A stretch of DNA of 64,000 bases from Elusimicrobiota bacterium (GCA_009773155.1 WOVA01000006.1:56293-120292); one strand, 5' to 3'; positions 10,450 to 55,391 are shown, numbered from the stretch's first letter. Numbers and translations: made by a program. The notes: a model not told the origin generated them from the letters alone.

Positions 10450-11808
10450 ATGATCAGGACCGGAACTTTGATAATAGGCGGCGGGCTGGCCGGACTTTCG
10501 GCGGCCATGACCCTTCGGGGCCGCAAAAAAATATTCCTCGCCGAAAAGGAGACCCGCTTCGGAGGCCTGGCGGCCACCGTGAGAAAAGGCGGCTTCCATT
10601 TCGACTATTCCGGCCATCTTCTTCATCTGCGCTGGCCCGAGACCACGCGCCTGATACTGGGCGCGCTGGGCTCCAATGTCCGCAGGATACGGCGCGACGC
10701 GCGCGTCTTCGCCCACGGCCGCTGGACGCCTTACCCCTTCCAGGCCAATCTCGCCGCCATGCCGCCGCGGGTCAGGTCCGAGTGCGTCTCGGGTTTCCTG
10801 CGCGCGCTGGCCGCCGGCGGAGGAGCGCCCGGCGACGGAACAGGGCGGCTTTGCCCGCAGTCGGTGCCGGGAGCACTGCGACCGGCCGGCAGCGAGACCT
10901 TCGATAAATGGAGCGGCCGCGTCTTCGGCGCCGGCATCTCGCGCTACTTCATGCTGCCCTACAACGCCAAGCTCTGGCAGTACCCGCTGGGCCGGCTCAC
11001 GACGGAATGGTGCGCGCCGTTCGTGCCGGTCCCCTCACCGGGCGACATAATAAAGGGGGCCTACGGCGCCGGCCGCCGCGCCATCGGCTACAACGCGGTT
11101 TTCCATTACCCGAAAAAGGGCGGCATCGGCGCTCTGGCCTCGGCCCTGGCAATGAAAGCCGGCGAGACACATCTGGGGATCGAAGCGGAGCGGGTGGACC
11201 TGCGCGCGCGCACCGCGCGCGTCCGCCACTTCGGGGAAATATCTTTCAAGCGCCTCATAAACACCGCCCCGCTCGACGAGTTCGTCGCGATGTGTTCCGA
11301 CGCCCCCGCGGCCGTGCGCCGCGCGGCGGGCCTGCTCCGCCGGAACACCGTATACGTGCTGAATATAGGCGCCAGGGGCGTTAAGTCGGATATGCACTGG
11401 GGCTATTTCCCGGGGACGGGCTTCCCCTTCTACCGCGCCGGCATCGCCAGCAACTTCTCGCGGGCGCTGGCCCCGTCCGGCGAGGCGTCCTTCTACATCG
11501 AGATAGCCACCGACGGCAGGGCGCTGGACCTGGAGTCGGCGGAGAAAGCCTGCGTCGCGGGCCTGCGGGCCTGCGGACTTATAAAGGACGCGCGGCAGGT
11601 CACGGAAAAGATGTGGCTGAAGATCCCCTGCGCCTACGTCATCTACGACGCGGACAGGGCGCGGGCCCTGCCGGTCATCTCCGGCTGGCTCAAAGAGCGC
11701 GGGGCGCGCTCCATAGGACGCTACGGGGCGTGGAAGTACTCCTTCATGGAGGAGAGCGTAAAGGAAGGCCTGGAGGCCGGCAGGGAGATCCTGGCCGGCC
11801 GGTCGTAG
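10450..11808 (+). CDS. FAD-dependent oxidoreductase (HemY/amine-oxidase/UDP-galactopyranose-mutase-like superfamily) carrying an in-frame repeat insertion
   Basis: GGGLAGL dinucleotide-binding motif, FDYSGHLL, PYNAKLW, GRYGAWKY. Confidence 0.8.
   Translation: MIRTGTLIIGGGLAGLSAAMTLRGRKKIFLAEKETRFGGLAATVRKGGFHFDYSGHLLHLRWPETTRLILGALGSNVRRIRRDARVFAHGRWTPYPFQANLAAMPPRVRSECVSGFLRALAAGGGAPGDGTGRLCPQSVPGALRPAGSETFDKWSGRVFGAGISRYFMLPYNAKLWQYPLGRLTTEWCAPFVPVPSPGDIIKGAYGAGRRAIGYNAVFHYPKKGGIGALASALAMKAGETHLGIEAERVDLRARTARVRHFGEISFKRLINTAPLDEFVAMCSDAPAAVRRAAGLLRRNTVYVLNIGARGVKSDMHWGYFPGTGFPFYRAGIASNFSRALAPSGEASFYIEIATDGRALDLESAEKACVAGLRACGLIKDARQVTEKMWLKIPCAYVIYDADRARALPVISGWLKERGARSIGRYGAWKYSFMEESVKEGLEAGREILAGRS
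10836..10889 (+). repeat. Family-1 two-hairpin repeat, in frame in the FAD oxidoreductase (GTGRLCPQSVPGALRPAG)
   Basis: cggaacagggcggctttgcccgcagtcggtgccgggagcactgcgaccggccgg matches the copies in pheS, dapF and the TPR gene. Confidence 0.9.
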
Positions 11809-11812
11809 AACT

Positions 11813-11903
11813 CGGAACAACGAGCCTCCGGCTCCACAGGTGCCGGGCGCTATGTCGCCCGGCCCCGGCACCGACAGCGGGCAATGCCGCCCTGATCCGG
11901 CCG
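11813..11903. repeat. Two family-1 repeats in opposite orientation between convergent genes (BIME-like; possible terminator)
   Basis: The + copy (11813-11862) shares its first 22 nt exactly with the pheT copy. The partial - copy (11864-11903) is the reverse complement of ggatcagggcggcattgcccgctgtcggtgccggg. Confidence 0.85.
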
Positions 11904-11913
11904 CTAGGGAAGA

Positions 11914-12804
11914 TCAGGAAGGCAGTTTTATCCCGGCTTTGACCATCGCCGCCTTGAGGCCGGGCCGCAGCTTCTGCGTGAACGGCGTCAGCGGCAGCCG
12001 CGGTTCCGGTCCGCAAAGTCCCAGCAGGGACGCGGCGTATTTGACCGGGATAGGGTTCGTTTCGACGAAGAGGTTCTTGACCAGCGGGAACAGCCGGTGA
12101 TGCATCTCCGCCGCCTCGCCGGAGCGGCCCTCGCGGAAAAGCGCGCACATGCGCGCGACCGGAGCCGGCGCCACGTTGGCGGTCACCGAGATCACGCCTT
12201 TAGCTCCCACCGACATCATCGGCAGCGTCAGCGAATCGTCGCCGCTCATCACGGCGAAACCTTCCGGAGCGCCGCCGGCTATCTCGCTGACCTGGTCCAG
12301 GTTACCGGAAGCCTCTTTTATCCCGACTATGTTCGAATATTCCCTGGCCAGGGCCAGCGCCGTGGCCGGCAGCATATTGACGCCGGTGCGGCCGGGGATA
12401 TTGTAGAGCACTACCGGCAGGCGCGTCGCGGCGGCCAGCGCGCCGAAATGAGCTTTCATCCCGGCCTGCGTAGGCTTATTGTAATAGGGCACTATCGCCA
12501 GGAGCCCGTCCACGCCGAGGGCGGATACTTTTTTCACCATCTCCACCGACTTCGCGGTGGAGTTGGTGCCGACTCCGGGCATGACCGGAAGTTTGCCTTT
12601 CGCCTCGTCCACGACGGTCTTTATGACCTCCAGGTATTCCCCGGCCTCGAGCGTGGCGGCCTCGCCCGTGGAGCCGCAGGGCACCAGGCCGTCGGCGCCG
12701 TTCTTGATCTGGAAACGGACTATCCGCCTGAGCGCTTCCAGGTCGGGCTTATCCCCCTTGAACGGGGTGATTATGGCGGTAAAGCAGCCTTCGAGTTTGA
12801 GCAT
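11914..12804 (-). CDS. dapA: 4-hydroxy-tetrahydrodipicolinate synthase
   Basis: GSTGE, VPYYNKPTQ, LYNIPGRTG, GIKEASG, ETNPIPVK. Confidence 0.97.
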   Translation of the reverse strand: MLKLEGCFTAIITPFKGDKPDLEALRRIVRFQIKNGADGLVPCGSTGEAATLEAGEYLEVIKTVVDEAKGKLPVMPGVGTNSTAKSVEMVKKVSALGVDGLLAIVPYYNKPTQAGMKAHFGALAAATRLPVVLYNIPGRTGVNMLPATALALAREYSNIVGIKEASGNLDQVSEIAGGAPEGFAVMSGDDSLTLPMMSVGAKGVISVTANVAPAPVARMCALFREGRSGEAAEMHHRLFPLVKNLFVETNPIPVKYAASLLGLCGPEPRLPLTPFTQKLRPGLKAAMVKAGIKLPS

Positions 12805-12826
12805 AGCTCCTCCTGTTAACCGGGCC

Positions 12827-13669
12827 TTAACCGATCTCGCCTTCGAACACCAGTCGCGCCGGACCTTCTATACTGATATCCCCCGCGCCCCGTCCCGGCC
12901 GGTCGCAGTGCGCCCGGCACCGACTGCGGCGAATGCCGCCCTGATCCGACGGCGTCAGCCGGACGGTAAAATCATCCCCCCCGCGCGAGCGCAGCCGCAC
13001 CGGGGACGCGGCCGCGCCGGACAGCGCCAGCGCGACGGCCGCGGCGGTCAGGCCGGTCCCGCAGGCCGGCGTCTCGTCCTCTACGCCCCTCTCGTAGGTG
13101 CGCACCAGGACCCGCCCGTTTCTATTCTCGACGAAATCCACGTTGGCCCCGGCGCGGCCGAAGGCGCGGTGACGGCGCAGCGCGCTCCCGAGCCCGCGCA
13201 CGTCCAGCCGCCCGAGATCCTTCACCGGGACCACGGCGTGCGGCACGCCGGTATCCAGGAAGTGAACCTCTTTCACGCCGGCCGGCCAGCGGCCGGGATG
13301 GCGCAGGCTGACTTTTCTGACAGCGGGCATGCTCATGCGCGCCCTTTCTTTACCGGTTATCTCCACCGGCAGCTCCCCCCGGATGGTCGCGAGCCTGAAA
13401 CGTCGGGGAACGAGGCCGTTCATGAAAGCCCACATCGCGGCGCAGCGCGAGCCGTTGCCGCAGAAGGCCTCGGAACCGTCGGAATTGAAATAGCGCAGGG
13501 ACATGAGGCCGGGACCCGCGCGGCGGACATGCAGCAGGCCGTCTGCGCCGACGGAGAGGCGCCTGTCGCAGAGCCGGCGGGCCAGCGCGCGCAGCGCCGC
13601 CGCGCGGCGCGGCGACCCGGTTATCAGGACGAAATCATTGCCGGCTCCGGACATTTTCCAGAATTTCAT
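12827..13669 (-). CDS. dapF: Diaminopimelate epimerase with an in-frame repeat insertion near the C-terminus
   Basis: KMSGAGNDF, FCGNGSRC, DTGVPH, NVDF, ERGVEDETPACGTG, EGPARLVFEG. Confidence 0.95.
   Translation of the reverse strand: MKFWKMSGAGNDFVLITGSPRRAAALRALARRLCDRRLSVGADGLLHVRRAGPGLMSLRYFNSDGSEAFCGNGSRCAAMWAFMNGLVPRRFRLATIRGELPVEITGKERARMSMPAVRKVSLRHPGRWPAGVKEVHFLDTGVPHAVVPVKDLGRLDVRGLGSALRRHRAFGRAGANVDFVENRNGRVLVRTYERGVEDETPACGTGLTAAAVALALSGAAASPVRLRSRGGDDFTVRLTPSDQGGIRRSRCRAHCDRPGRGAGDISIEGPARLVFEGEIG
12895..12948 (-). repeat. Family-1 repeat in frame in dapF (SDQGGIRRSRCRAHCDRP)
   Basis: Reverse complement reads cggatcagggcggcattcgccgcagtcggtgccgggcgcactgcgaccggccgg. Confidence 0.9.
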
Positions 13670-14670
13670 TTCTTCTCTCCCGCCGCCCGGGCGAGGCCGG
13701 CCAGGAAGGAGCTGTCCCCTGCCGAGACGGTCTCCAGTTCCGCGGCGGCTTCGGCCGCGCGGCCAAGTCCCCTGAGCGCCAGGCCCCGGACCAGCGCCAA
13801 GGACTGATCTTCCGCCGGCAGCAGCGGGGCGGCGGCGTCCAGCGCGGCCAGCGCGCCGGCGCGGTCGCCGGCCATAAGCAGGTACATCCCCTTCTCGAAA
13901 AGAAGACCGCCGTCGCGGCAGACGGGGCCGCAGGCCTCCTCCGCCAGGCCGGCGGCGCGGGAGTAAGCGCCGGTGCGCGCGCTTACCCGGGCCATGAGCC
14001 TGGTCAGTGCCGTATCGGACGGCGCCGCGGCGCGGGCCTCGTTAAGAAGAGCCAGCGCCCCCGTGAAATCGCGCATGGACTCCAGGCAGCGGGCGTACTC
14101 GGCCATGAAAGCGGGATCCCCGCCGCCCGAGGCGCGCGCGGCGGCGTAGCCGGCCGCCGCAGACGCCAGCGCCCCCATGCCGGCGTAACTCCGGGCCAGT
14201 CCCAGGTTAAGCTGGTAGGAGGACGGATCAGGGCGGCTTTCGCCGCAATCGGTGCACGGAGCTCTGCGACGGGCCGGGTCCTTCCCGACCAGCGGGCGGT
14301 ATATCTCGGCGGCCTTGTCGTAAAAACCATTGGCCAGGTAAAGTTCGGCGAGCGCTTTCGGAAAAAGCGTGTTCTCCTGGTAAAGCGCGGCCGCCAGCCT
14401 GTAAGTGTTTATGGCCCTGTCGGGAGAGCCCAGCGCCTCATGGCATTTGCCCAGGCAGTAATAGGCCCTCTCCTTGATCTCTCGGGAGGGCCCCAGGGCG
14501 AGCAGGGAGTTTATCGAGTCCACCGCTCCGGCGCAGTCGCCGTCGTCAAGACGCGAGATAGCCGCCGCCATCAGCCTCTCGTGGGCGGGATCGGGCTTCT
14601 TCTCCCAGAGGAAGGCGGCCGACGGGGAAACCGCCAGAAGCAGCAGGAGGGCGGCGGGGCAGAGCCTCAT
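13666..14670 (-). CDS. Exported tetratricopeptide-repeat protein with an in-frame repeat insertion
   Basis: Signal peptide MRLCPAALLLLLAVSPSAA (start re-called to 14670); TPR motifs AYYCLGKCHEALG, LAELYLANG. Confidence 0.75.
   Translation of the reverse strand: MRLCPAALLLLLAVSPSAAFLWEKKPDPAHERLMAAAISRLDDGDCAGAVDSINSLLALGPSREIKERAYYCLGKCHEALGSPDRAINTYRLAAALYQENTLFPKALAELYLANGFYDKAAEIYRPLVGKDPARRRAPCTDCGESRPDPSSYQLNLGLARSYAGMGALASAAAGYAAARASGGGDPAFMAEYARCLESMRDFTGALALLNEARAAAPSDTALTRLMARVSARTGAYSRAAGLAEEACGPVCRDGGLLFEKGMYLLMAGDRAGALAALDAAAPLLPAEDQSLALVRGLALRGLGRAAEAAAELETVSAGDSSFLAGLARAAGEKK
14224..14277 (+). repeat. Family-1 repeat, antisense and in frame in the TPR gene (PARRRAPCTDCGESRPDP)
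   Basis: cggatcagggcggctttcgccgcaatcggtgcacggagctctgcgacgggccgg. Confidence 0.9.
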
Positions 14671-15620
14671 ATCCCCTCCAGCAGCGCGCCGGCCGAGCGC
14701 AGCATATAAGCGCTCCTGGCCCGGTCCATAGATTCCCAGGCGGCGGCCCGCCCCAGTTCTCCGGCCTCCGCGCAGCGTTCGAAGTCGGCGACCTTGATAC
14801 CTCCGGCGCGGGGTTTTATCACGAAATCGGCCTCTTTCTCCTGGCTCGCCGCCAGTATCGAGCCCCTTATATCTATGACCTGCAGCAGCGACAGCAGGAC
14901 ATTGGACGGCATTTCGTCGACGCTGTTCTCGGTCACGCTGGCCAGCACCCACTCCGCGCCTATCGCGCGCGCCGCGCCTATCGGGATGAAGTCCACCACG
15001 CCGCCGTCGACGAGATAGCGGTGCCGGTACTCCACGGGGGCGAAGATGCCGGGCAGGTTCACGCTGGCGCGCACCGCGATGGACAGGGGACCTTCGTCGA
15101 AAACTATTCTCTCCCCGGTGCGAAAATCCATGGCCACGCAGGCGAAAGGGGTCTTCAGACCGGAGAACTCCCTGCCGCCGAGATTATCCTCTATCACCTG
15201 GGTTATGTACCTGGGGGAGATGAGCTGCTCGGCGAGCATAAGTTTGAGCAGGCCGAACCCGCCGAAGTCCCTGGCGAGCTTTAGTTCCGAAGTGCGCCGG
15301 CCGAAATCCCAGATCCCTTCGATCGTCATGCCGGAGGCGTAGAAGCCCCCGATCACCGAGCCCATCGAAGTGCCGGAGACGCGGTCCACCGGGAAGCCGG
15401 CGTAGAGCAGAGCCTCGAGGACGCCGGTATGGGCGAAGCCGCGGGCTCCCCCGCCTGAAAGCGCTACGCCGACGACCGGCCTCTCCCCGGCCGGCATGGC
15501 GACCAATTTTTCCCAGAGAATATCGCGGACGAAGGCCTCGCGCCCGGCTGTGGAAGCAGCTGCGGCTAAAGCGGGAAGGAACAGCAGCGGGAGTACCGCC
15601 GCGCGATGGAGGAGCCTCAC
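14667..15620 (-). CDS. Patatin-like phospholipase with signal peptide
   Basis: GGGARG, GTSMG (nucleophile), DGG motif. Confidence 0.9.
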   Translation of the reverse strand: MRLLHRAAVLPLLFLPALAAAASTAGREAFVRDILWEKLVAMPAGERPVVGVALSGGGARGFAHTGVLEALLYAGFPVDRVSGTSMGSVIGGFYASGMTIEGIWDFGRRTSELKLARDFGGFGLLKLMLAEQLISPRYITQVIEDNLGGREFSGLKTPFACVAMDFRTGERIVFDEGPLSIAVRASVNLPGIFAPVEYRHRYLVDGGVVDFIPIGAARAIGAEWVLASVTENSVDEMPSNVLLSLLQVIDIRGSILAASQEKEADFVIKPRAGGIKVADFERCAEAGELGRAAAWESMDRARSAYMLRSAGALLEGI

Positions 15621-16882: not shown

Positions 16883-16885
16883 CGG

Positions 16886-17467: not shown

Positions 17468-17477
17468 ATTCTCCCCC

Positions 17478-18512: not shown

Positions 18513-18539
18513 GATGTATGTCTCCTTGCCTTGAGATGT

Positions 18540-19307: not shown

Positions 19308-19354
19308 ATTTCGTCTCCGGTACTTCGCATTTTTCAACTGTATTCTAGAAAATT

Positions 19355-28058: not shown

Positions 28059-28105
28059 TTTATTATATATTTTGATTATAATACTACGATAGACCGCATC
28101 AGCGG

Positions 28106-28130
28106 GGGACACCATGCGGCATGGTGTCCC
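28106..28130. repeat. Family-2 palindrome GGGACACCATG-CGG-CATGGTGTCCC (perfect 11-bp stem)
   Basis: Near-identical copy at 56774-56800 and a degenerate copy at 49148-49174. Confidence 0.85.
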
Positions 28131-28168
28131 GGTACCATTTGCCGCCGCGCTTTCTCGTTTATTATTAC

Positions 28169-36715: not shown

Positions 36716-36811
36716 AGGGGACGCTGATTACTAAATGACTAATTTCACGAGCTCCATTGTCGCAACAGGCAAACGCCCTTCTAATTAGTCATTTAGTAAT
36801 CAGCGTCCCCT
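36716..36811. mobile_element. MITE-like 96-bp element with perfect 29-bp terminal inverted repeats
   Basis: aggggacgctgattactaaatgactaatt (36716-36744) is the exact reverse complement of 36783-36811; 38-bp AT-richer core; flanked by ATA on both sides. Confidence 0.7.
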
Positions 36812-45211: not shown

Positions 45212-45251
45212 AAAAAAGACCGGCCGCCTTCATGGGCGGCCGGTCTCTTTC
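45212..45251. terminator. Bidirectional intrinsic terminator between convergent PLD and tlyA
   Basis: AAAAAAGACCGGCCGCC-loop-GGCGGCCGGTCTCTTT; 12-bp stem with A and T tracts. Confidence 0.8.
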
Positions 45252-45267
45252 TGCCAGCGGGCGGTCC

Positions 45268-46005: not shown

Positions 46006-46014
46006 TATGTCCCA

Positions 46015-46215: not shown

Positions 46216-46254
46216 CTCCCCCCATCACCCGGTTGGCTCCTTATGCGAACCCGT

Positions 46255-46497: not shown

Positions 46498-47801
46498 AAT
46501 GTCTCCTGTCCGGGGATGTCGGTCTTTTTGGGCTTTGCGGTCTTCTTAGGGGCGTCTGCCGCGCCGGACGGGGCATCGGCGGCGCGCGCCGGGCCGGCCG
46601 CGGGGGCGGAGGTCTCAATGACCTCCGCGCCGGCGCGGCCTTCGGCGAAGCGCAGGTCCAGCCTGTCGCCGGCCTTAAGCCCCGCCGCGCTGCGTACCGC
46701 CTTCCCCGCCACGTCCTTGACGATGGCGTAGCCTTTCCTTAGCGGGAACAGCGGGCTGAGGGCGGTCAGTTTATGAGACTGAAGGTTCAGGCGCTCCGCG
46801 GCGCGGCGCAGGCGCTCGCCCGAGGCTTCGAAAAGGCCTTCCACGGCCTGATCCAGCCGCTGCGTGGGGCGCTCGAGCAGCGTCAGCGGGTCGCGGAAGG
46901 CCCGGTGGCCGGCCAGCCGCAGGAACCGGCCGCTGAGGTTCTCGTAATAGATGCGCAGCGACTGCAGCAGCCGCTTCTCGAGCTGAGCGATATTGGCGGC
47001 CAGTTCCACCTTGCTCTTCACCACCAGTTCGGCGGCGGCCGACGGGGTAGCCGCGCGCAGGTCGGCGACGAAATCGGCTATCGTAAAATCGGTCTCGTGT
47101 CCCACGCAGGAGATGACCGGTATCTTCGAGCCGGCTATGGCGCGGGCGACCAGTTCCTCGTTGAAGGACCAGAGGTCCTCCATCGAGCCGCCGCCGCGGC
47201 CGACCAGCATGACGTCGATGTCGGGGAAACCGGCGTTGAGGTCCCTTATCGCCTGGGCGATATCTTCTTTGGAACCGGCGCCCTGCACTTTAACGGGAGC
47301 GATGATGATATGGAGGTTGGCGTAGCGGCGGCCCAGGACGGAGAGTATGTCGCGGATGGCGGCGCCGGTCGGCGAAGTGACGACGCCTATCTTCTGCGGC
47401 AGCGCCGGTATCGGCCGCTTGCGGGCCGGGTCGAACAGTCCTTCGTCCTGGAGCTTCTTCTTAAGCTGCTCGAAGGCCAGCTGCAGCGGGCCTATGCCGG
47501 CTGGCACCAGTTCTTTCACCATCAGCTGGTACTTGCTCTGCTTGTCGTAGGTGGTGACGCCGCCGCGGGCGCGCACGAGCAGGCCGTTCTGCGGCTCGAA
47601 CTTGAGGCCCGAGGCCGGGCCGCGGAACATGACGGCGGAGATATTAGAAGAGGCGTCCTTGAGATCGAAATAGATGTGCCCGGCCGCGGACAGTTTGTAA
47701 CCGGAGATCTCGCCCTCCACCCACAGTTCGCGGAACGAGGCCTCGAGCAGCGTCTTCACGCCGCGGCTGAGCTCGCTGACGGTATAGACCCTATCGGCCA
47801 C
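46491..47801 (-). CDS. xseA: Exodeoxyribonuclease VII large subunit
   Basis: WVEGEISG, GHIYFDLKD, VTSPTGAAIRD, RGGGSMEDLW.FN, VGHETD, TPSAAAE. Confidence 0.96.
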   Translation of the reverse strand: MADRVYTVSELSRGVKTLLEASFRELWVEGEISGYKLSAAGHIYFDLKDASSNISAVMFRGPASGLKFEPQNGLLVRARGGVTTYDKQSKYQLMVKELVPAGIGPLQLAFEQLKKKLQDEGLFDPARKRPIPALPQKIGVVTSPTGAAIRDILSVLGRRYANLHIIIAPVKVQGAGSKEDIAQAIRDLNAGFPDIDVMLVGRGGGSMEDLWSFNEELVARAIAGSKIPVISCVGHETDFTIADFVADLRAATPSAAAELVVKSKVELAANIAQLEKRLLQSLRIYYENLSGRFLRLAGHRAFRDPLTLLERPTQRLDQAVEGLFEASGERLRRAAERLNLQSHKLTALSPLFPLRKGYAIVKDVAGKAVRSAAGLKAGDRLDLRFAEGRAGAEVIETSAPAAGPARAADAPSGAADAPKKTAKPKKTDIPGQETLW

Positions 47802-49210
47802 TATTTCTCCCCCCGCAGCCGGCGCAGCCGCCGGGCTATCTCGGCCTCGAAGCCCTGCTCGGTCGGTTCGTAGAAGCGCCGCGGCTCCGGCATATATTCC
47901 TGCGCGACATAATGGCCGTCGAAATCGTGCGGGTATTTATATCCCTTGCCGTGGCCGAAGGCCTCGCCGTCCCTGGACGCGTCGCGCAGGTGCAGCGGCA
48001 CGGCCCGCTCGGCGCCGCCGCGCACCTCGGACTGCGCCTCGTTTATGGCCAGGTAGGCGGCGTTGGACTTGGGCGAACAGGCGACATAGATGGCGGCCTG
48101 GGCCAGCGGGATGCGGCCCTCGGGCATGCCCAGCGAGGCGACGGCCGAGAATGCGGCCTGCGCTATAAGCAGGGCGTTGGGATTGGCGTTGCCCACGTCC
48201 TCGGCGGCGCAGATGAGTATGCGCCGCGCCAGGAAGCGGGGATCCTCGCCGGCTTCCAGCATTTTAGCCAGCCAGTAGACGGCGGCGTCGGGGTCGGAGC
48301 CGCGCATGGACTTAATGAACGCGGAGGCGTGGTCGTAATGCTCGTCGGCGCTCTTGTCGTAGCGCAGCGAGCGGCGCTGTATGGACTCTTTCGCCACCCC
48401 TATGTCGACATGCCGCTTGCCGCCCTTGCCCTGCGGCGTGGTCACCGCCGCCAGCTCTATGGCGTTGAGCAGCCGCCTGGCGTCGCCCGAGGAGTTCTCC
48501 ACGAAATATTTCTCCGCCTCGGGAGTGAGTTCGGGCCGCAGCGCGGCCAGGCCCTTCTCGTCGGAGAGGGCGCGGCGCAGCACTTTGCGCAGGGCCTCGG
48601 GCTCCAGCGGCTTGAACTCGAACACCAGGAAGCGCGAGAGCAGTGCGGAGTTTATGTAGAAATACGGGTTCTCGGTGGTAAGGCCGATAAGTACGATATC
48701 GCCCTTCTCCACGGAGGGCAGGAGGGCGTCCTGCTGGGTGCGGTTGAAATGGTGTATCTCGTCCAGGAGCAGCAGCGAGGCCGGTCGTATAACTCCCGGC
48801 ACCTGTGGCGCCGGAGGCACTGTTCCGACCGGCGCCAGGCCCGCCTCCTTCAGAGCGCGGGCGGCCTCGAGTATCTTCTTGAGCTCGGCCACGCCGGCGG
48901 TGACGGCGTTGAGCTCGAAGACCCGCGCTTTGGTGCGCGAGGCTATGAGCCGGGCGGTGGCCGTCTTGCCGCAGCCGGAAGGGCCGTAGAAGACGGCCGA
49001 GCGGACATTGTCGGATTCTATGGCGCGGCGCAGCAGCTTGCCTTCGGCCAATATATGCTCCTGGCCGGCGAACTGCTCCAGCGCGGACGGGGCGAGCCGG
49101 GCCGCCAGCGGCGACTGCCGCCGCTCCGCCTCCCCTCCGGCCTCGTCGGGGACGCCATGCCGCGCGGGGTCCCCCGCCGATGCGGGCGTTTCGAACAGGG
49201 ATTCTTCCAT
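47801..49210 (-). CDS. rarA: Replication-associated recombination protein A (MgsA) with repeat-derived insertions
   Basis: GQEHIL, GPSGCGKT, DEIHHFN, TTENP, HYDHASAFIKSMRGSDPDAA, EDVGNA. Confidence 0.95.
   Translation of the reverse strand: MEESLFETPASAGDPARHGVPDEAGGEAERRQSPLAARLAPSALEQFAGQEHILAEGKLLRRAIESDNVRSAVFYGPSGCGKTATARLIASRTKARVFELNAVTAGVAELKKILEAARALKEAGLAPVGTVPPAPQVPGVIRPASLLLLDEIHHFNRTQQDALLPSVEKGDIVLIGLTTENPYFYINSALLSRFLVFEFKPLEPEALRKVLRRALSDEKGLAALRPELTPEAEKYFVENSSGDARRLLNAIELAAVTTPQGKGGKRHVDIGVAKESIQRRSLRYDKSADEHYDHASAFIKSMRGSDPDAAVYWLAKMLEAGEDPRFLARRILICAAEDVGNANPNALLIAQAAFSAVASLGMPEGRIPLAQAAIYVACSPKSNAAYLAINEAQSEVRGGAERAVPLHLRDASRDGEAFGHGKGYKYPHDFDGHYVAQEYMPEPRRFYEPTEQGFEAEIARRLRRLRGEK
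48779..48827 (-). repeat. Family-1 repeat in frame in rarA (GTVPPAPQVPGVIRPA)
   Basis: Reverse complement reads cggaacagtgcctccggcgccacaggtgccgggagttatacgaccggcc. Confidence 0.8.
49148..49174. repeat. Degenerate family-2 palindrome within the rarA N-terminal extension (GDPARHGVP)
   Basis: ggggacgccatgccgc is identical over 16 nt to the reverse complement of 56774-56800. Confidence 0.6.
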
Positions 49211-49211
49211 C

Positions 49212-49514
49212 TTAAAGCGGTCCGGGACCGAGGGCCTCTTTGAGGCCGGCCGCCAGCTCGTCTATCTTGCGGGAATCGGCGGCGCGCAGGTCCTTGGACT
49301 TGTGTTCCAGGTTGAAGAGCTCGGCCGCGAAGTGCATCGCGGCCAGGATGGCCAGCTTCTGCGTGTCCACGCGCTTGAGGCCGGGCTCCAGCTCGGTCAT
49401 CTTCTCCTCGACCTGCTGGGCGATGGCGGCCACCTCCATGGGGGTGAGGCCCTCCATGGCTATATTGAGCTTGACGCCCTTTACGGTTACTTCCGTCTCG
49501 TCCTTCTGCATCAT
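49212..49514 (-). CDS. zapA: Cell division protein ZapA
   Basis: VTVKG...IAQQVEEKM...DTQKLAILAAMHFA. Confidence 0.8.
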   Translation of the reverse strand: MMQKDETEVTVKGVKLNIAMEGLTPMEVAAIAQQVEEKMTELEPGLKRVDTQKLAILAAMHFAAELFNLEHKSKDLRAADSRKIDELAAGLKEALGPGPL

Positions 49515-49774
49515 TCTTCGTCCAGACCGTCGAACAGGAAGCCCTGCCGGCTGGAGGCTTTCTCGATCTTCTCGCAGAGGCGGGCCAGCCGCTTTTTAAG
49601 CTTTTTCCGGGCCTCTTCGGCCGCGGGGCCGCGGCCGGCTTTCATGAGTTTGGTCCTGTCGGCCGCGTAGCTCTCCACCTGCTTGCGCAGCAGGGCGTTC
49701 TCGTCCTCCAGCGCCTTTATGCGGGAGATGGCGGTCTTTACCAGGCCGTCCAGGGTCTTGATACCTGCGTTCAT
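49511..49774 (-). CDS. Short coiled-coil protein (ZapB-like by position)
   Basis: Heptad pattern (RIKALEDENALLR); directly upstream of and overlapping zapA. Confidence 0.55.
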   Translation of the reverse strand: MNAGIKTLDGLVKTAISRIKALEDENALLRKQVESYAADRTKLMKAGRGPAAEEARKKLKKRLARLCEKIEKASSRQGFLFDGLDEE

Positions 49775-49925
49775 CAGTCCCCATTATATAAAAGATATAT
49801 ACGCGAGGGCCCGGGTCCGCGGCGGCATGAGACCTATATAAAAATGGGCCTTTGAACCGTGGCGGGGCCTCCCGGGAAAGGGTATAACATAGGTGAAGGA
49901 ACAGCGGAGTCTACGGAGGAATCAC

Positions 49926-50948
49926 ATGAAGCGTCTGAACAGAATGGTATCCGGGATAGCGGCCCTGGCCTTTATCCTGCCCTCTTTCGCGCGTGCGGAA
50001 GACAAGAGCATTTACGGCGACGACAACCGCCTCGACTATTTCGAAGCGCCGGCCGACATGAAAGAGCTGGCCAGGTCCGTGGTCTCGCTCTGGAAGAACG
50101 AGCATGTGCGCGTGGACGGCGGCACGGCCCGCGTGGCGACCGCCAATTTCGGGGAAGCGGTAGGACTTTGTCCCTCCGAAAGGTTCCGCGAGCAGCCCGT
50201 GGGCGCCTTCTGCTCCGGCTCCCTGGTGGGCGAGGACCTGGTCATGACGGCCGGCCACTGCATAGTGGACGAAGCCCAGTGCGCCGACACCCGGCTGGTC
50301 TTCGGCTACGCGGTGACCGAGCGGGGCAAGGCCGCCAACACCACCGTGCCCGCCGCCGACGTCTACTCCTGCAAGAAGATCATAAAGCGCGACCTGGACA
50401 AGCCCCCGACGGGCACCGTCGGCCTCATAGGCGCGATAGTCGGCAATATACTCGACACCACCGGCCCCGACTACGCCCTGATACAGCTCGACCGCAAAGT
50501 CACCGACCGCCGGCCGCTGCCTATCAACCGCGGCTCGAAGGTCAAGCAGGGGACCGGGGTTTTCGTCATAGGCCACCCCGTGGGCCTGCCGCTCAAAGTG
50601 GCCGGCGATGCCCGGGTGCGCTCCTCCAAGTTCATGCGCGCCCACTTCACCGCCGACCTCGACACCTTCGGCGGCAACTCCGGTTCGCCGGTGTTCAACG
50701 TTAAGACGAAGAAGATCGAGGGCATATTGGTGCGCGGCGGCACGGACTTCGTAAAGTCCCCCGAGGGCTGCACCGTGTCCTACAGCGTCGGCCAGAACGA
50801 CGGCAAGGGCGAGGCCGTGACGCATGTCTCGGTGCTCAAGGACTACATCCCGTCCTTCAAGTCCGCTCCCGAGACCTCCAAACTGGTGGAGCTCTCCCCC
50901 GAGGACACGGAGTTCGAGCCGCTCGAGCGGACCGTCAGCTTCGATTAA
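49926..50948 (+). CDS. Exported trypsin-like (S1/V8-type) serine protease
   Basis: TAGHC, DYALIQL, GGNSGSP catalytic triad; GGAGGA SD before ATG 49926; signal peptide. Confidence 0.9.
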   Translation: MKRLNRMVSGIAALAFILPSFARAEDKSIYGDDNRLDYFEAPADMKELARSVVSLWKNEHVRVDGGTARVATANFGEAVGLCPSERFREQPVGAFCSGSLVGEDLVMTAGHCIVDEAQCADTRLVFGYAVTERGKAANTTVPAADVYSCKKIIKRDLDKPPTGTVGLIGAIVGNILDTTGPDYALIQLDRKVTDRRPLPINRGSKVKQGTGVFVIGHPVGLPLKVAGDARVRSSKFMRAHFTADLDTFGGNSGSPVFNVKTKKIEGILVRGGTDFVKSPEGCTVSYSVGQNDGKGEAVTHVSVLKDYIPSFKSAPETSKLVELSPEDTEFEPLERTVSFD

Positions 50949-51003
50949 GCCGCAATACGCGATCGGGATAGGAGCGGCGACATGCGGGTCCGCATCCGGC
51001 GGT

Positions 51004-51345
51004 TCAATCGTCCAGCAAAACGTCGAGTTTCTTTAAGACTTCCGCCAGGGTTGCTCCTGGAATCCGGCAACAGAATCGGGCGCCTCTGGCCTGCCAATCC
51101 AGACTTTTGACCTGGTCAGCCAGGACGACTCCGGAAGCCTTCAGGCCGGAGGGGATGGAAATCTCGAAAGGATAACCCTTTGCCTGCGTAGTGATGGGGC
51201 AGAAGACGGCAAGCCCCGCTTTCCGGTTATAGGCCTCGGGAGAAAGAGCCAAAGCCGGTCTATAACCCGTCTGCTCATGCCCTGCCTGAGGCGCAAAGGA
51301 CAGCCAGACAACATCGCCACGCTTCGGGCAATAAGGACTGGGCAT
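51004..51345 (-). CDS. mazF: MazF/PemK endoribonuclease toxin
   Basis: PKRGDVVWLSFAPQAGHEQTGYRPALALSP, PITT, DQVKSLDW; start overlaps the mazE stop (TAATG). Confidence 0.93.
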   Translation of the reverse strand: MPSPYCPKRGDVVWLSFAPQAGHEQTGYRPALALSPEAYNRKAGLAVFCPITTQAKGYPFEISIPSGLKASGVVLADQVKSLDWQARGARFCCRIPGATLAEVLKKLDVLLDD

Positions 51346-51587
51346 TACCAAATTTCCCGTCCGGCCGCGCCGCCGCAATTCTGTTCGGAGTGGCGATTGT
51401 TTTTGGTGATGCCCTTGAGCATATGTGAGAGCGGGATTTTGCACTGCCCCTTAGGCTTTACAACCATCTCGCCTTCTATCACTACCACTTCAACCATGGA
51501 GCCCTGGCGTAAATGAATATCCCTGGCAAAAGCGCTTGGAATACGCAACGCCAGGCTGTTTCCCCATTTTTGAACGATTGTGGTCAT
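51345..51587 (-). CDS. mazE: MazE/AbrB antitoxin
   Basis: VQKWGNSLALRIP...GREIW. Confidence 0.93.
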   Translation of the reverse strand: MTTIVQKWGNSLALRIPSAFARDIHLRQGSMVEVVVIEGEMVVKPKGQCKIPLSHMLKGITKNNRHSEQNCGGAAGREIW

Positions 51588-51599
51588 AACACCCTCCGT

Positions 51600-51642
51600 A
51601 TGTATCTACATTGAGTATACATTAACTTCAGAAGATTGTCAA
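51600..51642 (-). promoter_or_regulatory. Sigma70 promoter of mazEF with overlapping palindromic operator
   Basis: TTGACA (51637-51642), 17 nt, TATACT (51614-51619); imperfect palindrome ATGTAT...ATACAT at 51600-51622; GGAGGG SD. Confidence 0.8.
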
Positions 51643-51665
51643 GGCCTTGCCGGCAAAAAAACAGG

Positions 51666-54107
51666 TCAGCCGCGCAGTTTCGCCCCGAAGGAGGCTTCCA
51701 GTTTCTTAAGCGCCTTCTCCATGCGGGAATTGACGTCGGCGTCGGTCATCGTCCTCTCCATGGCGGAGAAAGTGAACCGCAGCGTGAGGCTGCGCTGGCC
51801 CTCGGGCACGCCCTTGCCCTTGTAAACATCTATGAGGTCCAGCCGGGCCAGGTCAGGCAGGGAAAAGAGGTCCTTCTCCATTTCCGCCCATTCGCGCTTA
51901 TCGTCGACCAGCACCGAGAGGTCGCGCCAGGCGGCGGGGTAAGACGACACGGGTTTAACCTGCGGCACCCGGTCGCGGAAAGAGCCCTTCCAGGACTCGG
52001 CCAGCGAGGAGAGGGTTATCTCGAAATAATAGACCTGCGTGTCCTTGAGATCGCTGTTGATGACGGCCATCGGGTCGGCCAGGCCCAGTACGCCGGCCTC
52101 GCCCGCTCCGAGCTTCATGACCAGCGCCGCGCCCTCCTGCAGGAAGGCGGGCCTATGCTTCGGCTTCTCGAAACGGAAGCCGCGCCGGCCGCCGAAAACG
52201 GCCTGCATGACGCCCTTTAAATGGTAGAAATCCGACATCTCGGAGCCGCCGCGCCAGTGCTGCTCCTCGGGGAAAGGGCCGTACGTCAGTCCGGCGCAGA
52301 CGCGCTCTTCCTTCCTGCCGTCCTTCGTCTTATGATACACCGTGCCGGTCTCGAAAACAGCGACCGAGGTCCGGCCGCGGTTGAGATTGTAGCGCAGGGT
52401 CCTGAGCAGTCCCGGCAGAAGCGAAACGCGCAGATACTGGTAATCCGAAGAAAGCGGATTGAGCAGTTCCACCGCCTGCGTCTCGTCGAGCAGGCAGTTG
52501 CGGAAATCCTTGAGCGGGACCAGATCGTAGTTGTACACCTCTGAGAAACCAAGGGCGGCCAGGCGTCCTCGCAGCTCGGCCTCGGCCTCCGCCAGGGGCG
52601 TGGACGAGGCGGGCATGACGGGCATCGACGAGGCCGAAGGGATGAGGTCGTAACCGTTGTAGCGCGCGGCTTCCTCGGCCAGGTCCTGGACGTTCTCTAT
52701 GTCGCGCCTGTAGGAAGGCGGCGTGAACTGCCAGGGCTTCTCCGGCGAAAGCTCCGGCTGTATGGCCTTGAGGCAGGCGAAGATCTTCTCGTCGGTCATC
52801 GCCGTCCCCAGTATCGCGTTTATGCGCGCGGGGTCGGCGGCAACCACCGGCAGGCGGGGCGGTTCGGGGAAATTGTCGCTGACCTGCTCCACCCCGGCCG
52901 ACGGGACGGCCTCCAGCAGCAGCCCCGCTATGCGGCGGGCGGCCTTCATCGTAAGTTCGATGTCGGTGCCGCGCTCGAAGCGGTAGGACGACTCGCTCTT
53001 TATGCCGCTCTTGCGGGACGAGGCCCGCACGGCGGACTGAGCGAAAGAGGCGGACTCTATGAGTACGGAATCGGTAGTATCGGCGACGGAGGAATAGAAG
53101 CCGCCCATGACGCCGGCCAGCGCCACCGGCTTCTCCCGGTCGGCTATGACCAGCGTGCCGGCGGCGAGCCTGAGCTCGATGCCGTCGAGCGCTTTCATGC
53201 TCTCGCCGTCGGACGACGGGCGCACCTTTATTTCGGGACCGGCGAGGTTGGCCAGGTCGAAACAATGCGTCGGCTGGCCCAGCTCGTACATGACGTAGTT
53301 GGAAACGTCTATAAGGAGATTGCCCTTGGGATTGGAGCCCATAGCGCGCAGCCGCGCGGCCATCCAGTCCGGCGTCTTCGCGCCTTCAAGGCCTTTCATC
53401 ACTACGGCGGTATAGCGCGGGCAGAGGCAGGGATCCGTTACGGAGACCGGCGCGACGGTGCCGGCGGACTTAGGCAGTTCCGTCAGGACCGGTTCCCTGA
53501 ATTTAAGCCCGTAGAAGACGCAGAGCTCGCGGGCCAGCGCGTAATGGGAAAGGCAGTAGGACAGGTTGGGCGTTATCTCCAGCTCGAACACCCAGTCCGG
53601 CAAGGCGACATGGCGCCTTGCACTTGATGAGCCGGAGGCTCGTTGTTCCGGCGGGGCGAAAAGCGCGCGCGCGTCGGCGCCCAGCGGCGCGGACGGGTCC
53701 AGCACGAGTATGCCGGAATTATCGTAACCCTCCAGGCCCAGTTCCCCCGCCGAGCAGATCATGCCCTCGGACTCGACGCCGCGTATCTTCGCTTTTTTAA
53801 GCTCGCCCTCGGCGAGCACGGCCCCGACGCGGGCGAAAGGTATCAGCTGGCCGACGGCGATATTTTTGGCGCCGCAGACCACGCGCATCGTCGCCGCGCC
53901 GTCGCTGACGTCCACCAGCGAAAGTTTGTCGGCGTTGGGGTGCCTGTCTATTTTGTCGATGCGGCCTACAACCACGCCGGTGACGGCGGCGCCGCTGCGG
54001 CCCGCGCTCTCGACGCCCAGACCCAGCCGCGCGAACTTGCCGGGCAGTTCCTCCGCCGGGGGCGGGGTCTCGATGAAATCGCAGAGCCAGGAATAAAGTA
54101 TTTTCAC
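51666..54107 (-). CDS. pheT: Phenylalanine--tRNA ligase beta subunit with an in-frame repeat insertion
   Basis: HPNADKL, RGVESEGMICS, ITPN, SYRFERG, YRRDI..QDLAEE, FDX-ACB C-terminus; GTG start 54107 overlaps the pheS stop. Confidence 0.96.
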   Translation of the reverse strand: MKILYSWLCDFIETPPPAEELPGKFARLGLGVESAGRSGAAVTGVVVGRIDKIDRHPNADKLSLVDVSDGAATMRVVCGAKNIAVGQLIPFARVGAVLAEGELKKAKIRGVESEGMICSAGELGLEGYDNSGILVLDPSAPLGADARALFAPPEQRASGSSSARRHVALPDWVFELEITPNLSYCLSHYALARELCVFYGLKFREPVLTELPKSAGTVAPVSVTDPCLCPRYTAVVMKGLEGAKTPDWMAARLRAMGSNPKGNLLIDVSNYVMYELGQPTHCFDLANLAGPEIKVRPSSDGESMKALDGIELRLAAGTLVIADREKPVALAGVMGGFYSSVADTTDSVLIESASFAQSAVRASSRKSGIKSESSYRFERGTDIELTMKAARRIAGLLLEAVPSAGVEQVSDNFPEPPRLPVVAADPARINAILGTAMTDEKIFACLKAIQPELSPEKPWQFTPPSYRRDIENVQDLAEEAARYNGYDLIPSASSMPVMPASSTPLAEAEAELRGRLAALGFSEVYNYDLVPLKDFRNCLLDETQAVELLNPLSSDYQYLRVSLLPGLLRTLRYNLNRGRTSVAVFETGTVYHKTKDGRKEERVCAGLTYGPFPEEQHWRGGSEMSDFYHLKGVMQAVFGGRRGFRFEKPKHRPAFLQEGAALVMKLGAGEAGVLGLADPMAVINSDLKDTQVYYFEITLSSLAESWKGSFRDRVPQVKPVSSYPAAWRDLSVLVDDKREWAEMEKDLFSLPDLARLDLIDVYKGKGVPEGQRSLTLRFTFSAMERTMTDADVNSRMEKALKKLEASFGAKLRG
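53597..53650 (-). repeat. Family-1 repeat in frame in pheT (PEQRASGSSSARRHVALP)
   Basis: Reverse complement reads cggaacaacgagcctccggctcatcaagtgcaaggcgccatgtcgccttgccgg. Confidence 0.85.
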
Positions 54108-55300
54108 AGCTGTTTCCAGACGCGCAGGTCGTTCTCGTAGAACATGCGCATGTCTTTTATACCGAAGAGGAGCATGGCGAAGCGCTCCACGCCCGCGCCG
54201 AAGGCGAAGCCGCTCCACTTCTCGGGGTCGTGGCCGCAGGCCTTGAGCACGTTGGGGTGCACCATGCCCGCGCCAAGCATCTCAAGCCACCCCGTGCCCT
54301 TGCAAATGGGACAGCGTTCGGACTTGCCGGAACAGCCGCTCTGCGGCCCCAGGTGCACGGAGCTATGCGACGTGCCGCCGCAGAAGACGCAGGAGATCTC
54401 AACCTGCGCGCCGGGCTCGACGAAAGGGAAATAGGTAGGCGCGAAGCGCACCCTGGCGGAGGAGCCGAAAAGATCCTTGATGAAGGCGTCCAGCGTCCAG
54501 CGCAGGTCGGCCATGCTGACGGACCTGTCGACGTAGAGGCCCTCCACCTGGTGGAAGACGAAAGAGTGGCTGGCGTCCACGGCCTCGGAGCGGAAGACGC
54601 GGCCGGGCGAGATGATGCGCAGCGGCAGGGCGGCACCTTTCATGGAGCGTATCTGCACCGGCGAGGTATGCGTGCGCAGCAGCATATCCTTGCCGGAGGC
54701 GTCCTTCACTCCCGCGTAGAAGGTATCCTGCATATCCCGGGCCGGATGGTCGGCCGGGAAGTTGAGGGCTTCGAAATTGAAGTGATCTTCCTCGACGTGC
54801 GGACCCTCGGCAACCGAGAACCCCAGCTTCATAAGGGAGGCGGTGACGCGGTCCATCGCCTGAGTTATCGGGTGCAGGCTGCCTTTGGGAAAAGGGCGGC
54901 CCGACAGCGTAAGGTCCAGCCCGGCAGAGGCCTTCGCCCCCCCCCCGGCCGGATCAGGGCGGCTTTTGCCGCTGTCGGTGCCGGGAGCACTGCGACCGGC
55001 CGGATCAGGGCGGCTTTTGCCGCTGTCGGTGCCGCAAGCTCTGCGCGCGGCCAGCTCGGCCTTCTTGGCTTCCAGGGCGGCGACCAGGCGGCCTTTGAGC
55101 TCGTTGCCCAGGCGTCCCAGTTCTTTCTTCTCTTCTATGGTGAATGAGCCCAGGTCGCGCAGCAGCAGGGCGAGCTCGCCCTTGCGGCCGAGGAACTGCA
55201 GCTCGACTTCGGCTATATTGTCGGAAGCGGCCCCGGAAATGGCGGAGGAGAAGCTCTCGCCCACGCGAGACAGCTTCTCCTTCCACTCGGACGCGTTCAT
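54104..55300 (-). CDS. pheS: Phenylalanine--tRNA ligase alpha subunit with three repeat-derived insertions
   Basis: GSLHP, NFEALNFPADHPARDMQDTF, LRTHTSPVQ, FHQVEG, FPFVEP, GAGMVHP. Confidence 0.97.
   Translation of the reverse strand: MNASEWKEKLSRVGESFSSAISGAASDNIAEVELQFLGRKGELALLLRDLGSFTIEEKKELGRLGNELKGRLVAALEAKKAELAARRACGTDSGKSRPDPAGRSAPGTDSGKSRPDPAGGGAKASAGLDLTLSGRPFPKGSLHPITQAMDRVTASLMKLGFSVAEGPHVEEDHFNFEALNFPADHPARDMQDTFYAGVKDASGKDMLLRTHTSPVQIRSMKGAALPLRIISPGRVFRSEAVDASHSFVFHQVEGLYVDRSVSMADLRWTLDAFIKDLFGSSARVRFAPTYFPFVEPGAQVEISCVFCGGTSHSSVHLGPQSGCSGKSERCPICKGTGWLEMLGAGMVHPNVLKACGHDPEKWSGFAFGAGVERFAMLLFGIKDMRMFYENDLRVWKQL
54325..54378 (+). repeat. Family-1 repeat, antisense and in frame in the pheS CxxC...CxxC loop (TSHSSVHLGPQSGCSG)
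   Basis: 54 bp identical to 55338-55391. Confidence 0.92.
54945..55052 (+). repeat. Two tandem family-1 repeats (51-bp period) in frame in the pheS linker
   Basis: ccggccggatcagggcggcttttgccgctgtcggtgccg occurs twice; protein GTDSGKSRPDPAG x2. Confidence 0.95.
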
Positions 55301-55337
55301 GCCTGTCCGCCGGCCCTCAGGCCAATGCGTGCGCAGG

Positions 55338-55391
55338 TGCCGGAACAGCCGCTCTGCGGCCCCAGGTGCACGGAGCTATGCGACGTGCCGC
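55338..55391 (+). repeat. Family-1 repeat, intergenic between rplT and pheS
   Basis: tgccggaacagccgctctgcggccccaggtgcacggagctatgcgacgtgccgc, identical to the copy inside pheS. Confidence 0.92.

Follow-up and report, generated by a model that had tools for sequence, protein, structure and literature searches.

The stretch of DNA analysed here (hereafter the window) comprises 64,000 nt of a contig from an Elusimicrobiota bacterium (GCA_009773155.1, WOVA01000006.1:56293-120292), with 64% GC and ~93% coding sequence, and contains a short palindromic repeat that has inserted itself into several of its genes. PheS homologues place the organism in Elusimicrobia. A first-pass annotation had proposed 11 copies of the repeat, eight of them in frame inside six proteins. 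We found all 11 copies within 0-4 nt of the proposed positions and on the strands first listed, although the one at 11864 is only a truncated left half of 36 nt. A profile built from the copies (nhmmer) found precisely these 11 in the window (E 1e-7 to 5e-15) and no other match at E<1; a covariance model run with filters off scored them at 40-80 bits, with the runner-up at 15 bits. A strict pattern for the main subtype (type A, below) matched six times in the window and not once in 100 dinucleotide-preserving shuffles. Since a twelfth copy lies on the same contig 10 kb upstream of the window, this genome holds 12 copies in 74 kb and is unusually dense in them: the six strict matches in 64 kb contrast with at most ~20 per whole representative genome. 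The window copies are of mixed orientation (seven plus, four minus) and clustered, five in 3.4 kb and six in 6.6 kb with a 34.6-kb gap between (largest-gap P=0.004). Loci retrieved on account of one copy frequently contain further copies.

The repeat unit is 45-51 nt long, typically 51 nt or 17 codons, and can be written CGGAWCA...GC. It consists of a 7-nt leader (CGGAWCA), a 5-bp hairpin 1, a linker ending in RGTG, and a hairpin 2 of 8-9 bp that reaches the 3' terminus (...GC). We distinguish three main subtypes. Type A (51 nt) has hairpin 1 GCGGC-NNNN-GCCGC; type B (51 nt) has GAGCC-TCC-GGCTC and a hairpin 2 of 8 bp; type C (45-48 nt) has GCCGC-TCT-GCGGC or GCCCC-TCA-GGGGC. Leader and RGTG linker are conserved across the subtypes. 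The two hairpins of a unit are unlike each other in stem and loop.

The eight in-frame copies are spread over genes for an amine-oxidase-like FAD protein (FAD oxidoreductase, FADox), DapF, a TPR protein, RarA/MgsA, PheT and PheS (three copies), all confirmed by NCBIfam and Pfam, and none of them breaks its open reading frame (ORF). The first, a type A unit at 10836-10886 (+), lies in the FADox gene (10450-11808, +) and contributes residues 129-146 (DGTGRLCPQSVPGALRPA); the site is unoccupied in two related loci, L041 and L043, where the sequence runs ...GGCGA^CGGC.... Four nucleotides past the FADox stop codon, in the spacer between the convergent FADox and dapA genes, an intergenic type B unit of 51 nt (11813-11863, +) stands tail to tail with the truncated type A copy (11864-11899, -), of which only the leader, hairpin 1 and the start of hairpin 2 are left (model positions 1-38). 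This spacer measures 105 nt in the window and 16 nt in L041. In dapF (12827-13669, -) a type A unit of 51 nt at 12898-12948 (-) contributes residues 241-258 (SDQGGIRRSRCRAHCDRP) in a beta-hairpin turn. The TPR gene (13666-14952, -) carries an antisense, in-frame type A unit of 51 nt at 14224-14274 (+) that contributes ARRRAPCTDCGESRPDP, its site being unoccupied in L041.

The second cluster begins in rarA (47801-49210, -), where a short variant of 48 nt at 48780-48827 (-) contributes 16 residues (GTVPPAPQVPGVIRPA; codons 128-144, first Val retained) immediately ahead of the Walker B strand; the site is unoccupied in the related loci L003 and L004. The type B unit of 51 nt in pheT (53600-53650, -) contributes PEQRASGSSSARRHVALP to the linker preceding the B3/4 domain, and L003 and L004 are unoccupied there too, with the junction GCCGGA. 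Three in-frame copies lie antisense in pheS. A type C unit of 48 nt (54328-54375, +) contributes 16 residues (TSHSSVHLGPQSGCSG; codons 309-325, first Gly retained) that separate the zinc knuckle's two CxxC halves, and a tandem pair of type A units (2 x 51 nt; 54950-55000 and 55001-55051, +) lengthens by 34 residues the linker that joins the N-terminal coiled coil to the catalytic core. The rplT-pheS spacer, 108 nt in the window and 16 nt in L003 and L004, holds an insertion of ~91-95 nt (55324-55414) immediately 3' of the rplT stop codon, in which a type C unit of 48 nt (55341-55388, +) is flanked on either side by degenerate element fragments. One example of the peptides expected from the inserts in pheS, pheT and dapF is GTDSGKSRPDPAGR. 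The reading frames fall into the groups first described: FADox shares a frame with RarA, DapF with PheT, and the TPR protein with the PheS linker, while the Cys loop of PheS uses a further reverse frame.

Counting the tandem pheS pair as one, the window has ten insertion sites, and all ten are unoccupied in syntenic relatives at ~77-91% DNA identity. Syntenic loci of GCA_003500765.1 and GCA_019135865.1 (~82-95% DNA identity by megablast) show clean empty sites, both genomes being empty at rarA, pheT, both pheS positions and the rplT-pheS spacer; two more syntenic loci are empty at FADox, the FADox/dapA spacer and dapF, and one of these, L041, also at the TPR gene. None of these empty-site loci contains a single copy of the element. 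Over the whole comparison (15 filled/empty pairs from syntenic genomes at 77-94% identity, with 13 scorable junctions), intragenic inserts measured 48, 51, 81 (30+51) or 102 nt, those of the window being 48, 51, 51, 51, 51, 48 and 102 nt. Intergenic inserts are free of this length constraint (~92 nt, and an ~89-nt composite). The proteins agree with the DNA, and the expected insertions of ~17 residues were borne out by alignment with PheS and DapF orthologues. DapF orthologues have 262-270 residues and that of the window 280, the extra 17 being seen only in the window. The next PheS homologues after those of the same species (81% and 76% identity; 348 aa) are without all three inserts, as is every more distant one.

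The same insertions are found in independent assemblies: NCBI GCA_009773265.1 (contig WPII01000007.1), ENA ERZ27284377, ERZ27284380 and ERZ27284381, and Logan SRR8863440, whose contig stops within the FADox copy, as a true repeat would predict. Because independent assemblies carry them identically, the insertions are not assembly chimeras. The segments are thus insertions of a dispersed palindromic repeat and not conserved parts of the proteins. The pheS linker array is, furthermore, polymorphic within the species. Two 51-nt units are present in the NCBI assembly, whereas two ENA assemblies, 99.95-100% identical elsewhere, have one (54950-55051 versus L001:10247-10302); the closest PheS, from ENA, accordingly carries a single linker unit and has 381 aa. 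As a separate observation, locus L040 has an intergenic copy (L040:216-269) at a place where the window species (L001:~1150-1200, upstream of a tRNA) reads CCGGCC-CCGGCC. This is both termini of the element joined, and could be the footprint of an excision or deletion, or a pre-existing target.

The family extends well beyond one species. A strict type A pattern scan of 185,579 species genomes, one per species, matched 36 loci in seven genomes, all of them Elusimicrobia metagenome-assembled genomes (MAGs), with copy number varying widely between genomes, and a metagenome scan added 13 loci from the same lineages. At least eight species-level Elusimicrobia genomes therefore carry the family, the seven MAGs besides the window genome being JACQWV01, CAZVWK01, JAVVFK01, CAYPYG01, DNQL01, JAVHLJ01 and JAGVVD01. 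The first-pass description of the repeat as lineage-specific does not hold if it is taken to mean a single lineage, since one of these genomes, JACQWV01 from groundwater, has 45.6% GC; its copies, of types A, B and C, nevertheless have ~70% GC. The retrieved JACQWV01 loci have no clear orthologues in the loci of the other genomes (one 29% match). We found no copies in IMG/VR viral contigs, searched with two patterns, or in a plasmid collection. The concatenated six-frame peptides gave nothing at E<=10 against a database of 5.8 billion proteins, for which such matches are too short.

Insertion is specific for a short target. The inserted block is always CGGAWCA...GC, in either orientation, and what follows 3' of the junction is CGG in 8 of 13 cases, CGC in 3 and C in 2, that is, CG-type in 11 of 13. 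Against a CGG background of 3.7% this is a strong enrichment (P=4e-9). Filled and empty sites overlap at the junction by 1-6 nt, always of CGG, CG or C type. This apparent duplication arises because the unit itself starts with CGG; since its sequence is constant and its length variable, it reflects target specificity and not the duplication left by a staggered cut. Four independent insertions chose GA^C GGN, in frame the codons of an Asp-Gly turn. Units also enter one another. In one genome the two hairpins of a type C unit are separated by an inserted type B unit, and the resulting 96-nt composite has moved as a whole, because it is present at two places. Another copy is nested in the loop of a different palindromic repeat within a uvrA-like ORF (L031). 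Head-to-tail arrays have a period of exactly 51 nt, as first noted for the window, with two units in window pheS and three in other genomes.

The pairing of the hairpins is maintained while their sequence changes. Hairpin 1 stems differ wholly among subtypes (GCGGC, GAGCC, GCCGC, GTGCC, GCCCC), yet pairing is always kept. Across 45 distinct copies (527 cells), 91.7% of cells were paired, compared to 81.6% in shuffled data and 24-52% with the partner shifted by 1-3 columns. Hairpin 2 was 96.8% paired, with compensatory double changes in five of seven pairs, and the covariation score of the whole two-hairpin structure was reached in 0 of 500 shuffles. Only 2 of the 527 cells were G-U pairs. Because covariation is confined to Watson-Crick pairs and copies run both with and against transcription, the structure is more likely to be read in the DNA (or on both strands alike) than to be an RNA motif. 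Folded as single-stranded DNA (ssDNA), four of six representative units had the two-hairpin form as their minimum free energy structure.

Most copies reside in genes. By conservative criteria of coding status, at least 44 of 62 copies from the window and from loci of seven other genomes (>=71%) are intragenic, 27 in the same orientation as transcription and 17 antisense. This share is below the 90-93% expected of random landing (P=0.03 for the window, 2e-5 overall), so some insertions must have been purged. In JACQWV01, whose long ORFs are reliable, three units lie in the gene of a radical-SAM protein and three in that of CoaBC (DFP domain), four copies lie in the gene of an O-antigen ligase-like protein, and further hosts include genes for a Mur ligase and for a Ser/Thr kinase; an in-frame array of three units amounts to 51 residues. 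Every intragenic insert is a multiple of 3 nt without a stop in the frame of its host gene, and between them the copies use all six frames. Units with GGAACA in the leader are open in all six frames, whereas GGATCA introduces a TGA in one antisense frame. That frame is occupied solely by GGAACA copies (0 of 7 GGATCA copies versus 6 of 10 GGAACA copies), an avoidance that is suggestive although the numbers are small (P=0.017 by copies, ~0.07 by independent events). Lengths and frame use together indicate that the inserts are translated, and we infer that they appear in the proteins as passenger peptides of 16-17 residues.

The proposal that the inserts lie in loops and linkers was upheld by structure predictions for PheS and DapF and by structural alignments for PheS and RarA. 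In AlphaFold models the bodies of PheS and DapF have a predicted local distance difference test (pLDDT) score above 90, while the inserts score below 50 and have no secondary structure; the low-scoring stretches are the PheS linker (residues 91-130), the zinc-knuckle loop of PheS (310-322) and the beta-hairpin turn of DapF (245-255). Aligned with solved structures, the PheS insert falls in the gap between two CxxC motifs (4P71) and the RarA insert in a gap just ahead of the Walker B strand of E. coli MgsA (3PVS). Genes remain unbroken and insertions persist, then, because the unit is a multiple of three in length, nearly all of its frames are free of stops, and the positions are loops or linkers. 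Elsewhere in the phylum, unrelated palindromic or tandem inserts occupy the identical PheS zinc-knuckle loop (L044:1657-2862, from a genome of 38% GC) and the DapF hairpin loop (L045:1898-2797). Since unrelated inserts share them, these two loops tolerate insertion in general, and what is seen here is not limited to one family; the invasion of genes by palindromic repeats seems to recur in Elusimicrobia.

Taken together, the results are best explained by a non-autonomous mobile repeat, similar to REP (repetitive extragenic palindromic) sequences and Rickettsia palindromic elements (RPEs) of other bacteria, that is confined to an Elusimicrobia clade and translated as a passenger peptide; we put the probability of this reading at about three in four. 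The element inserts in either orientation immediately 5' of CGG or CG, units nest in one another, and tandem arrays grow or shrink. Copies landing in loop or linker codons are tolerated and hence retained, and disordered passenger peptides would be made even in PheS, PheT, DapF and RarA. The conserved, covarying hairpins would be recognized by a trans-acting enzyme encoded elsewhere.

Mobilization in trans is suggested by two observations, namely that no unit can encode anything and that no transposase was found in the window or in ~0.4 Mb of related sequence. Four features resemble those of elements moved by HUH/Y1 enzymes: the lack of terminal inverted repeats (TIRs) and target-site duplications, a sequence-specific junction, terminal hairpins and DNA-type covariation. 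By analogy, the mobilizer might be an ssDNA transposase of the HUH/Y1 class, either like the REP-associated tyrosine transposases (RAYTs) or like that of IS200/IS605. This is the weakest step of the explanation, and we advance it only tentatively.

Several observations weigh against the reading of a mobile passenger repeat. As the first-pass annotation had noted, the window contains no transposase: domain searches of its ORFs found none, and E. coli rayT (NC_000913.3) gave only noise by tblastn and phmmer against the window plus ~0.35 Mb of related loci (the best match, in L037 at E 0.27, was a GNAT acetyltransferase and was rejected). Nor did any one genome, in ~0.4 Mb, contain a multi-copy segment of at least 250 bp that could be an autonomous, insertion sequence (IS)-like element. 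The left and right hairpins are unlike, whereas IS200/IS605 ends resemble each other, and both orientations occur within one 3.4-kb cluster with no GC-skew switch, which disfavours strict lagging-strand targeting. Folding energies are unexceptional relative to GC-matched shuffles (z -0.2 to -2.8), and one JACQWV variant does not have the two-hairpin form as its minimum free energy structure; because GC-rich shuffles fold too and most z-scores are insignificant, the structural case rests on covariation. Translation is deduced from insert lengths and frame use. Finally, JACQWV01 copies are ~86% identical to those of the window despite the difference in genomic GC (45.6% versus 64%), and one orthologous copy is identical at 51 of 51 positions between two genomes whose flanks are ~85% identical. 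This identity and the conservation across GC contents could leave room for selection at the host level in place of pure selfishness; recurrent insertion at a hot spot, or vertical persistence of the kind seen in REPINs (bioRxiv 10.1101/2021.07.10.451892), would also explain them.

A more specific form of the mobile-repeat explanation would make the family a transposon lineage adapted to life inside genes, which we regard as rather unlikely. Its adaptations could be the length of 15-17 codons, the six nearly stop-free frames and the preference for G-N^CGG; an ssDNA enzyme would move the element and perhaps excise it precisely, and the family would persist, in the manner of REPINs and RAYTs, across Elusimicrobia genomes of 45% to 66% GC. 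If this were true, length variation like that of variable-number tandem repeats (VNTRs) would arise in the linkers of essential enzymes.

Among the alternatives proper, the one that survives best, although we think it improbable, is that the element is a DNA or RNA signal of benefit to the host (one bound by a nucleoid protein, a repair protein or a topoisomerase, for example, or one that gives an mRNA its structure) and lies in genes as a side effect. Conservation of the sequence in genomes of 45.6% to 66% GC fits this idea, as do the covarying stems, the regional clustering of copies and the 51/51 identity just described (P ~2.5e-4 under neutrality). However, close relatives mostly do not share insertion sites, and every window site is empty in relatives at ~77-91% identity; genomes differ widely in copy number; for two other orthologous copies, conservation does not clearly exceed that of the flanks; and copies run with transcription (27) as well as against it (17), with no tie seen between placement and gene function. 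The conservation is accounted for just as well by ongoing transposition from conserved master copies or by REPIN-like vertical persistence.

Still less probable is a classical MITE (miniature inverted-repeat transposable element) mobilized by a DDE transposase, that is, a deletion derivative of an IS. Like many MITEs, the element is short, non-coding, dispersed, nested and locally clustered. Its ends argue otherwise: the 5' end (CGGAWCAGG...) and the reverse-complemented 3' end (GCCGGTCGC...) share no TIRs beyond the palindromic CCGG/CGG, and none of the 13 junctions shows a fixed-length duplication of arbitrary sequence, the 1-6-nt overlap being of constant CGG type. A unit of 45-51 nt lies below the usual size of MITEs, and no related IS occurs in the sequence examined.

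We also considered that the peptides themselves are the selected entities, as Cys-containing or Pro/Gly-rich linker modules to which the DNA repeat is secondary. Cys pairs do appear in some frames (RSRCRAHCDRP), and some inserts occupy linkers where added length could help, with a tandem number that varies in the PheS linker. But the six frames of the same DNA yield unrelated peptides; copies depart from the consensus equally often at all three codon positions (9.3, 9.3 and 9.4% at positions 1, 2 and 3); the variable positions are the hairpin loops and covarying stem positions and follow no codon pattern; intergenic copies are as well conserved; and the inserts are predicted to be disordered. 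The explanation is thus very improbable. The peptides look unselected, and apparently are passengers. The early proposal that the family is a source of new peptide segments therefore stands in so far as insertion is concerned, but the equal divergence at the three codon positions gives no sign that the peptides are functional.

Proteins would not be lengthened at all if the inserts were removed from the RNA like introns or bypassed by the ribosome, and the compact two-hairpin unit of ~50 nt is indeed close in size to the coding gap of T4 gene 60 and to the mitochondrial 'byp' elements. Lengths of 3n, the lack of host-frame stops and the shunning of the stop frame by the stop-bearing variant are expected only if the inserts are translated; antisense copies would give a different RNA; and Rfam matched nothing in the window at gathering thresholds, nor any family, ribozymes and introns included, in 54900-55450 at E<=1. 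We consider this account highly improbable. An intein was ruled out, 17 residues being too short. That the segments are ancient protein parts or assembly artefacts has next to no probability, since no supporting point is left after the checks: orthologues at 76-81% protein identity and beyond are without them, syntenic DNA is cleanly empty, four independent assemblies or samples have identical insertions, and one read-level assembly breaks within a copy.

Other repeats and genes of the region were recorded alongside. A second, unrelated palindromic family (about CCGCATCRGCGG-GGGACACCATGCNGCATGGTGTCCC) occurs in the window at 28093-28136, 49136-49185 and 56775-56799, and elsewhere at L001:558-582, L016:5239, L021:1481, L030:6997 and L031:~6320-6420. 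One of its copies lies within mltA (L001) and one in the infC leader, and it is in its loop that the main element is nested in the uvrA-like ORF of L031. In rarA it forms a 24-nt in-frame insertion (8 aa) that is missing from L003 and L004, so RarA holds two different elements. A perfect, AT-rich 29-bp inverted repeat (AGGGGACGCTGATTACTAAATGACTAATT) with a 38-nt spacer occupies 36716-36811, in the spacer that separates two divergent genes, one for a Cache-domain protein and the other for a tRNA U5-methyltransferase-like protein. A MazE/MazF-like toxin-antitoxin pair (51004-51587), flanked by pheT and a gene for a trypsin-like protease, is present in L001, from the window species, and missing at this place in the syntenic L003 and L004. 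On the minus strand, just upstream of tufA and tRNA-Thr, a 62-nt direct repeat of 74% identity (63669-63730 and 63891-63952) was not recognized as a tRNA or an Rfam family. The direct repeats D8, D16, D18 and D19 (2847-8315) were rejected as mobile repeats, being paralogous B12-binding radical-SAM genes.

In-frame selfish DNA in housekeeping genes has so far been seen mainly as a Rickettsia curiosity, accompanied by scattered intragenic REPs elsewhere. The present case comes from an unrelated, poorly studied phylum and is more extreme, with ~70% of copies intragenic, arrays of up to three units, and invaded genes that include those for PheRS, DapF, RarA, a Mur ligase and CoaBC. The insertion sites are a natural chart of which loops in essential enzymes tolerate added sequence. 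For annotators and structure predictors the case is a warning that a low-complexity insert in a MAG protein may be mobile DNA, and the unit itself (48-51 nt, two hairpins, a CGG target) is a tractable substrate for finding the mobilizing enzyme.

The closest known systems are the RPEs, which the first-pass annotation had rightly named as the nearest precedent, and, in Opitutus terrae, Thauera and others, the GTAG/CGTC REPs that lie within genes (PMC10969869, PMC3733652). RPEs (Ogata et al. 2000, 2002, as summarized in PMC10969869 and PMC3733652) are likewise dispersed palindromic repeats, many copies of which sit in frame in housekeeping genes unrelated to one another; they allow the proteins to fold, form several co-existing families and are seen as selfish DNA supplying peptides; in-frame copies in many intact, unrelated ORFs, with empty sites in relatives, are common to both. 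Going by the description of RPEs, the differences are that RPE-1-type elements are ~100-150 bp, and RPEs carry a terminal CGTC tag and occur only in Rickettsia, whereas the repeat described here has 45-51 nt, two unlike hairpins and no CGTC or GTAG, lies next to CGG, forms in-frame tandem arrays, and belongs to free-living or environmental hosts of a different phylum. Its intragenic share is at least 71%, compared to about half or less for RPEs.

With REPs, including BIMEs, REPINs, their RAYTs and the intragenic GTAG/CGTC forms (PMC3733652, PMC2817692, PMC3116915), the family shares GC-rich hairpins whose stem is preceded on its 5' side by a conserved single-stranded leader, a mosaic, nested and clustered arrangement, long-term conservation in a clade and a plausible trans-acting HUH mobilizer. 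REPs, too, are occasionally in frame in genes such as uvrA and those of tRNA synthetases (PMC3733652), although the intragenic share found here is far above their mostly extragenic habit (PMC3733652, PMC12306157). The type A, B and C consensus sequences, however, have no GTAG/CTAC and no conserved CGTC/GACG, and where a REP is a single palindrome of 20-40 bp or an inverted pair, mainly extragenic, the Elusimicrobia unit has two different hairpins in direct order and is mostly intragenic.

Further comparisons can be made with mobile elements that have neither TIRs nor target-site duplications. IS200/IS605-derived PATEs, IS91 and Helitron-like elements have subterminal hairpins instead and insert beside a short specific sequence. 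The family shares these features with PATEs, but its hairpins are dissimilar, it has no orientation bias, no TnpA was found in the sequence examined, and its unit is far smaller. MIRU-VNTRs (mycobacterial interspersed repetitive units) are GC-rich units of ~51-54 bp whose tandem number varies between strains and whose lengths fit the neighbouring reading frames. By description the element resembles them in unit size, GC-richness, strain-variable tandem arrays and frame-compatible length; MIRUs, however, lie in intergenic operon spacers and are not dispersed into the interiors of enzymes. Bacterial MITEs with coding capacity, such as ERIC, Correia, the Anabaena MITEs and QMITE1 (PMC10969869), are also small non-autonomous repeats that sometimes make in-frame fusions, but they are of 70-300 bp and mainly intergenic, with TIRs and target duplications. 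Neither TIRs of 15-30 bp nor a fixed-length duplication of arbitrary target sequence is present here.

Because the defining features of classical REPs and MITEs are lacking (no GTAG/CGTC tag, unlike hairpins, a mostly intragenic location, no TIRs or target duplications), the early label of 'REP/MITE-like' is apt as an analogy and not as a statement of membership. The literature we searched held no paper tying Elusimicrobia to such repeats, which is not proof that none exists. The family behaves like RPEs and intragenic REPs while probably belonging to neither: the repeat family is new, and the kind of phenomenon, selfish DNA carried in frame within genes, is one already known.

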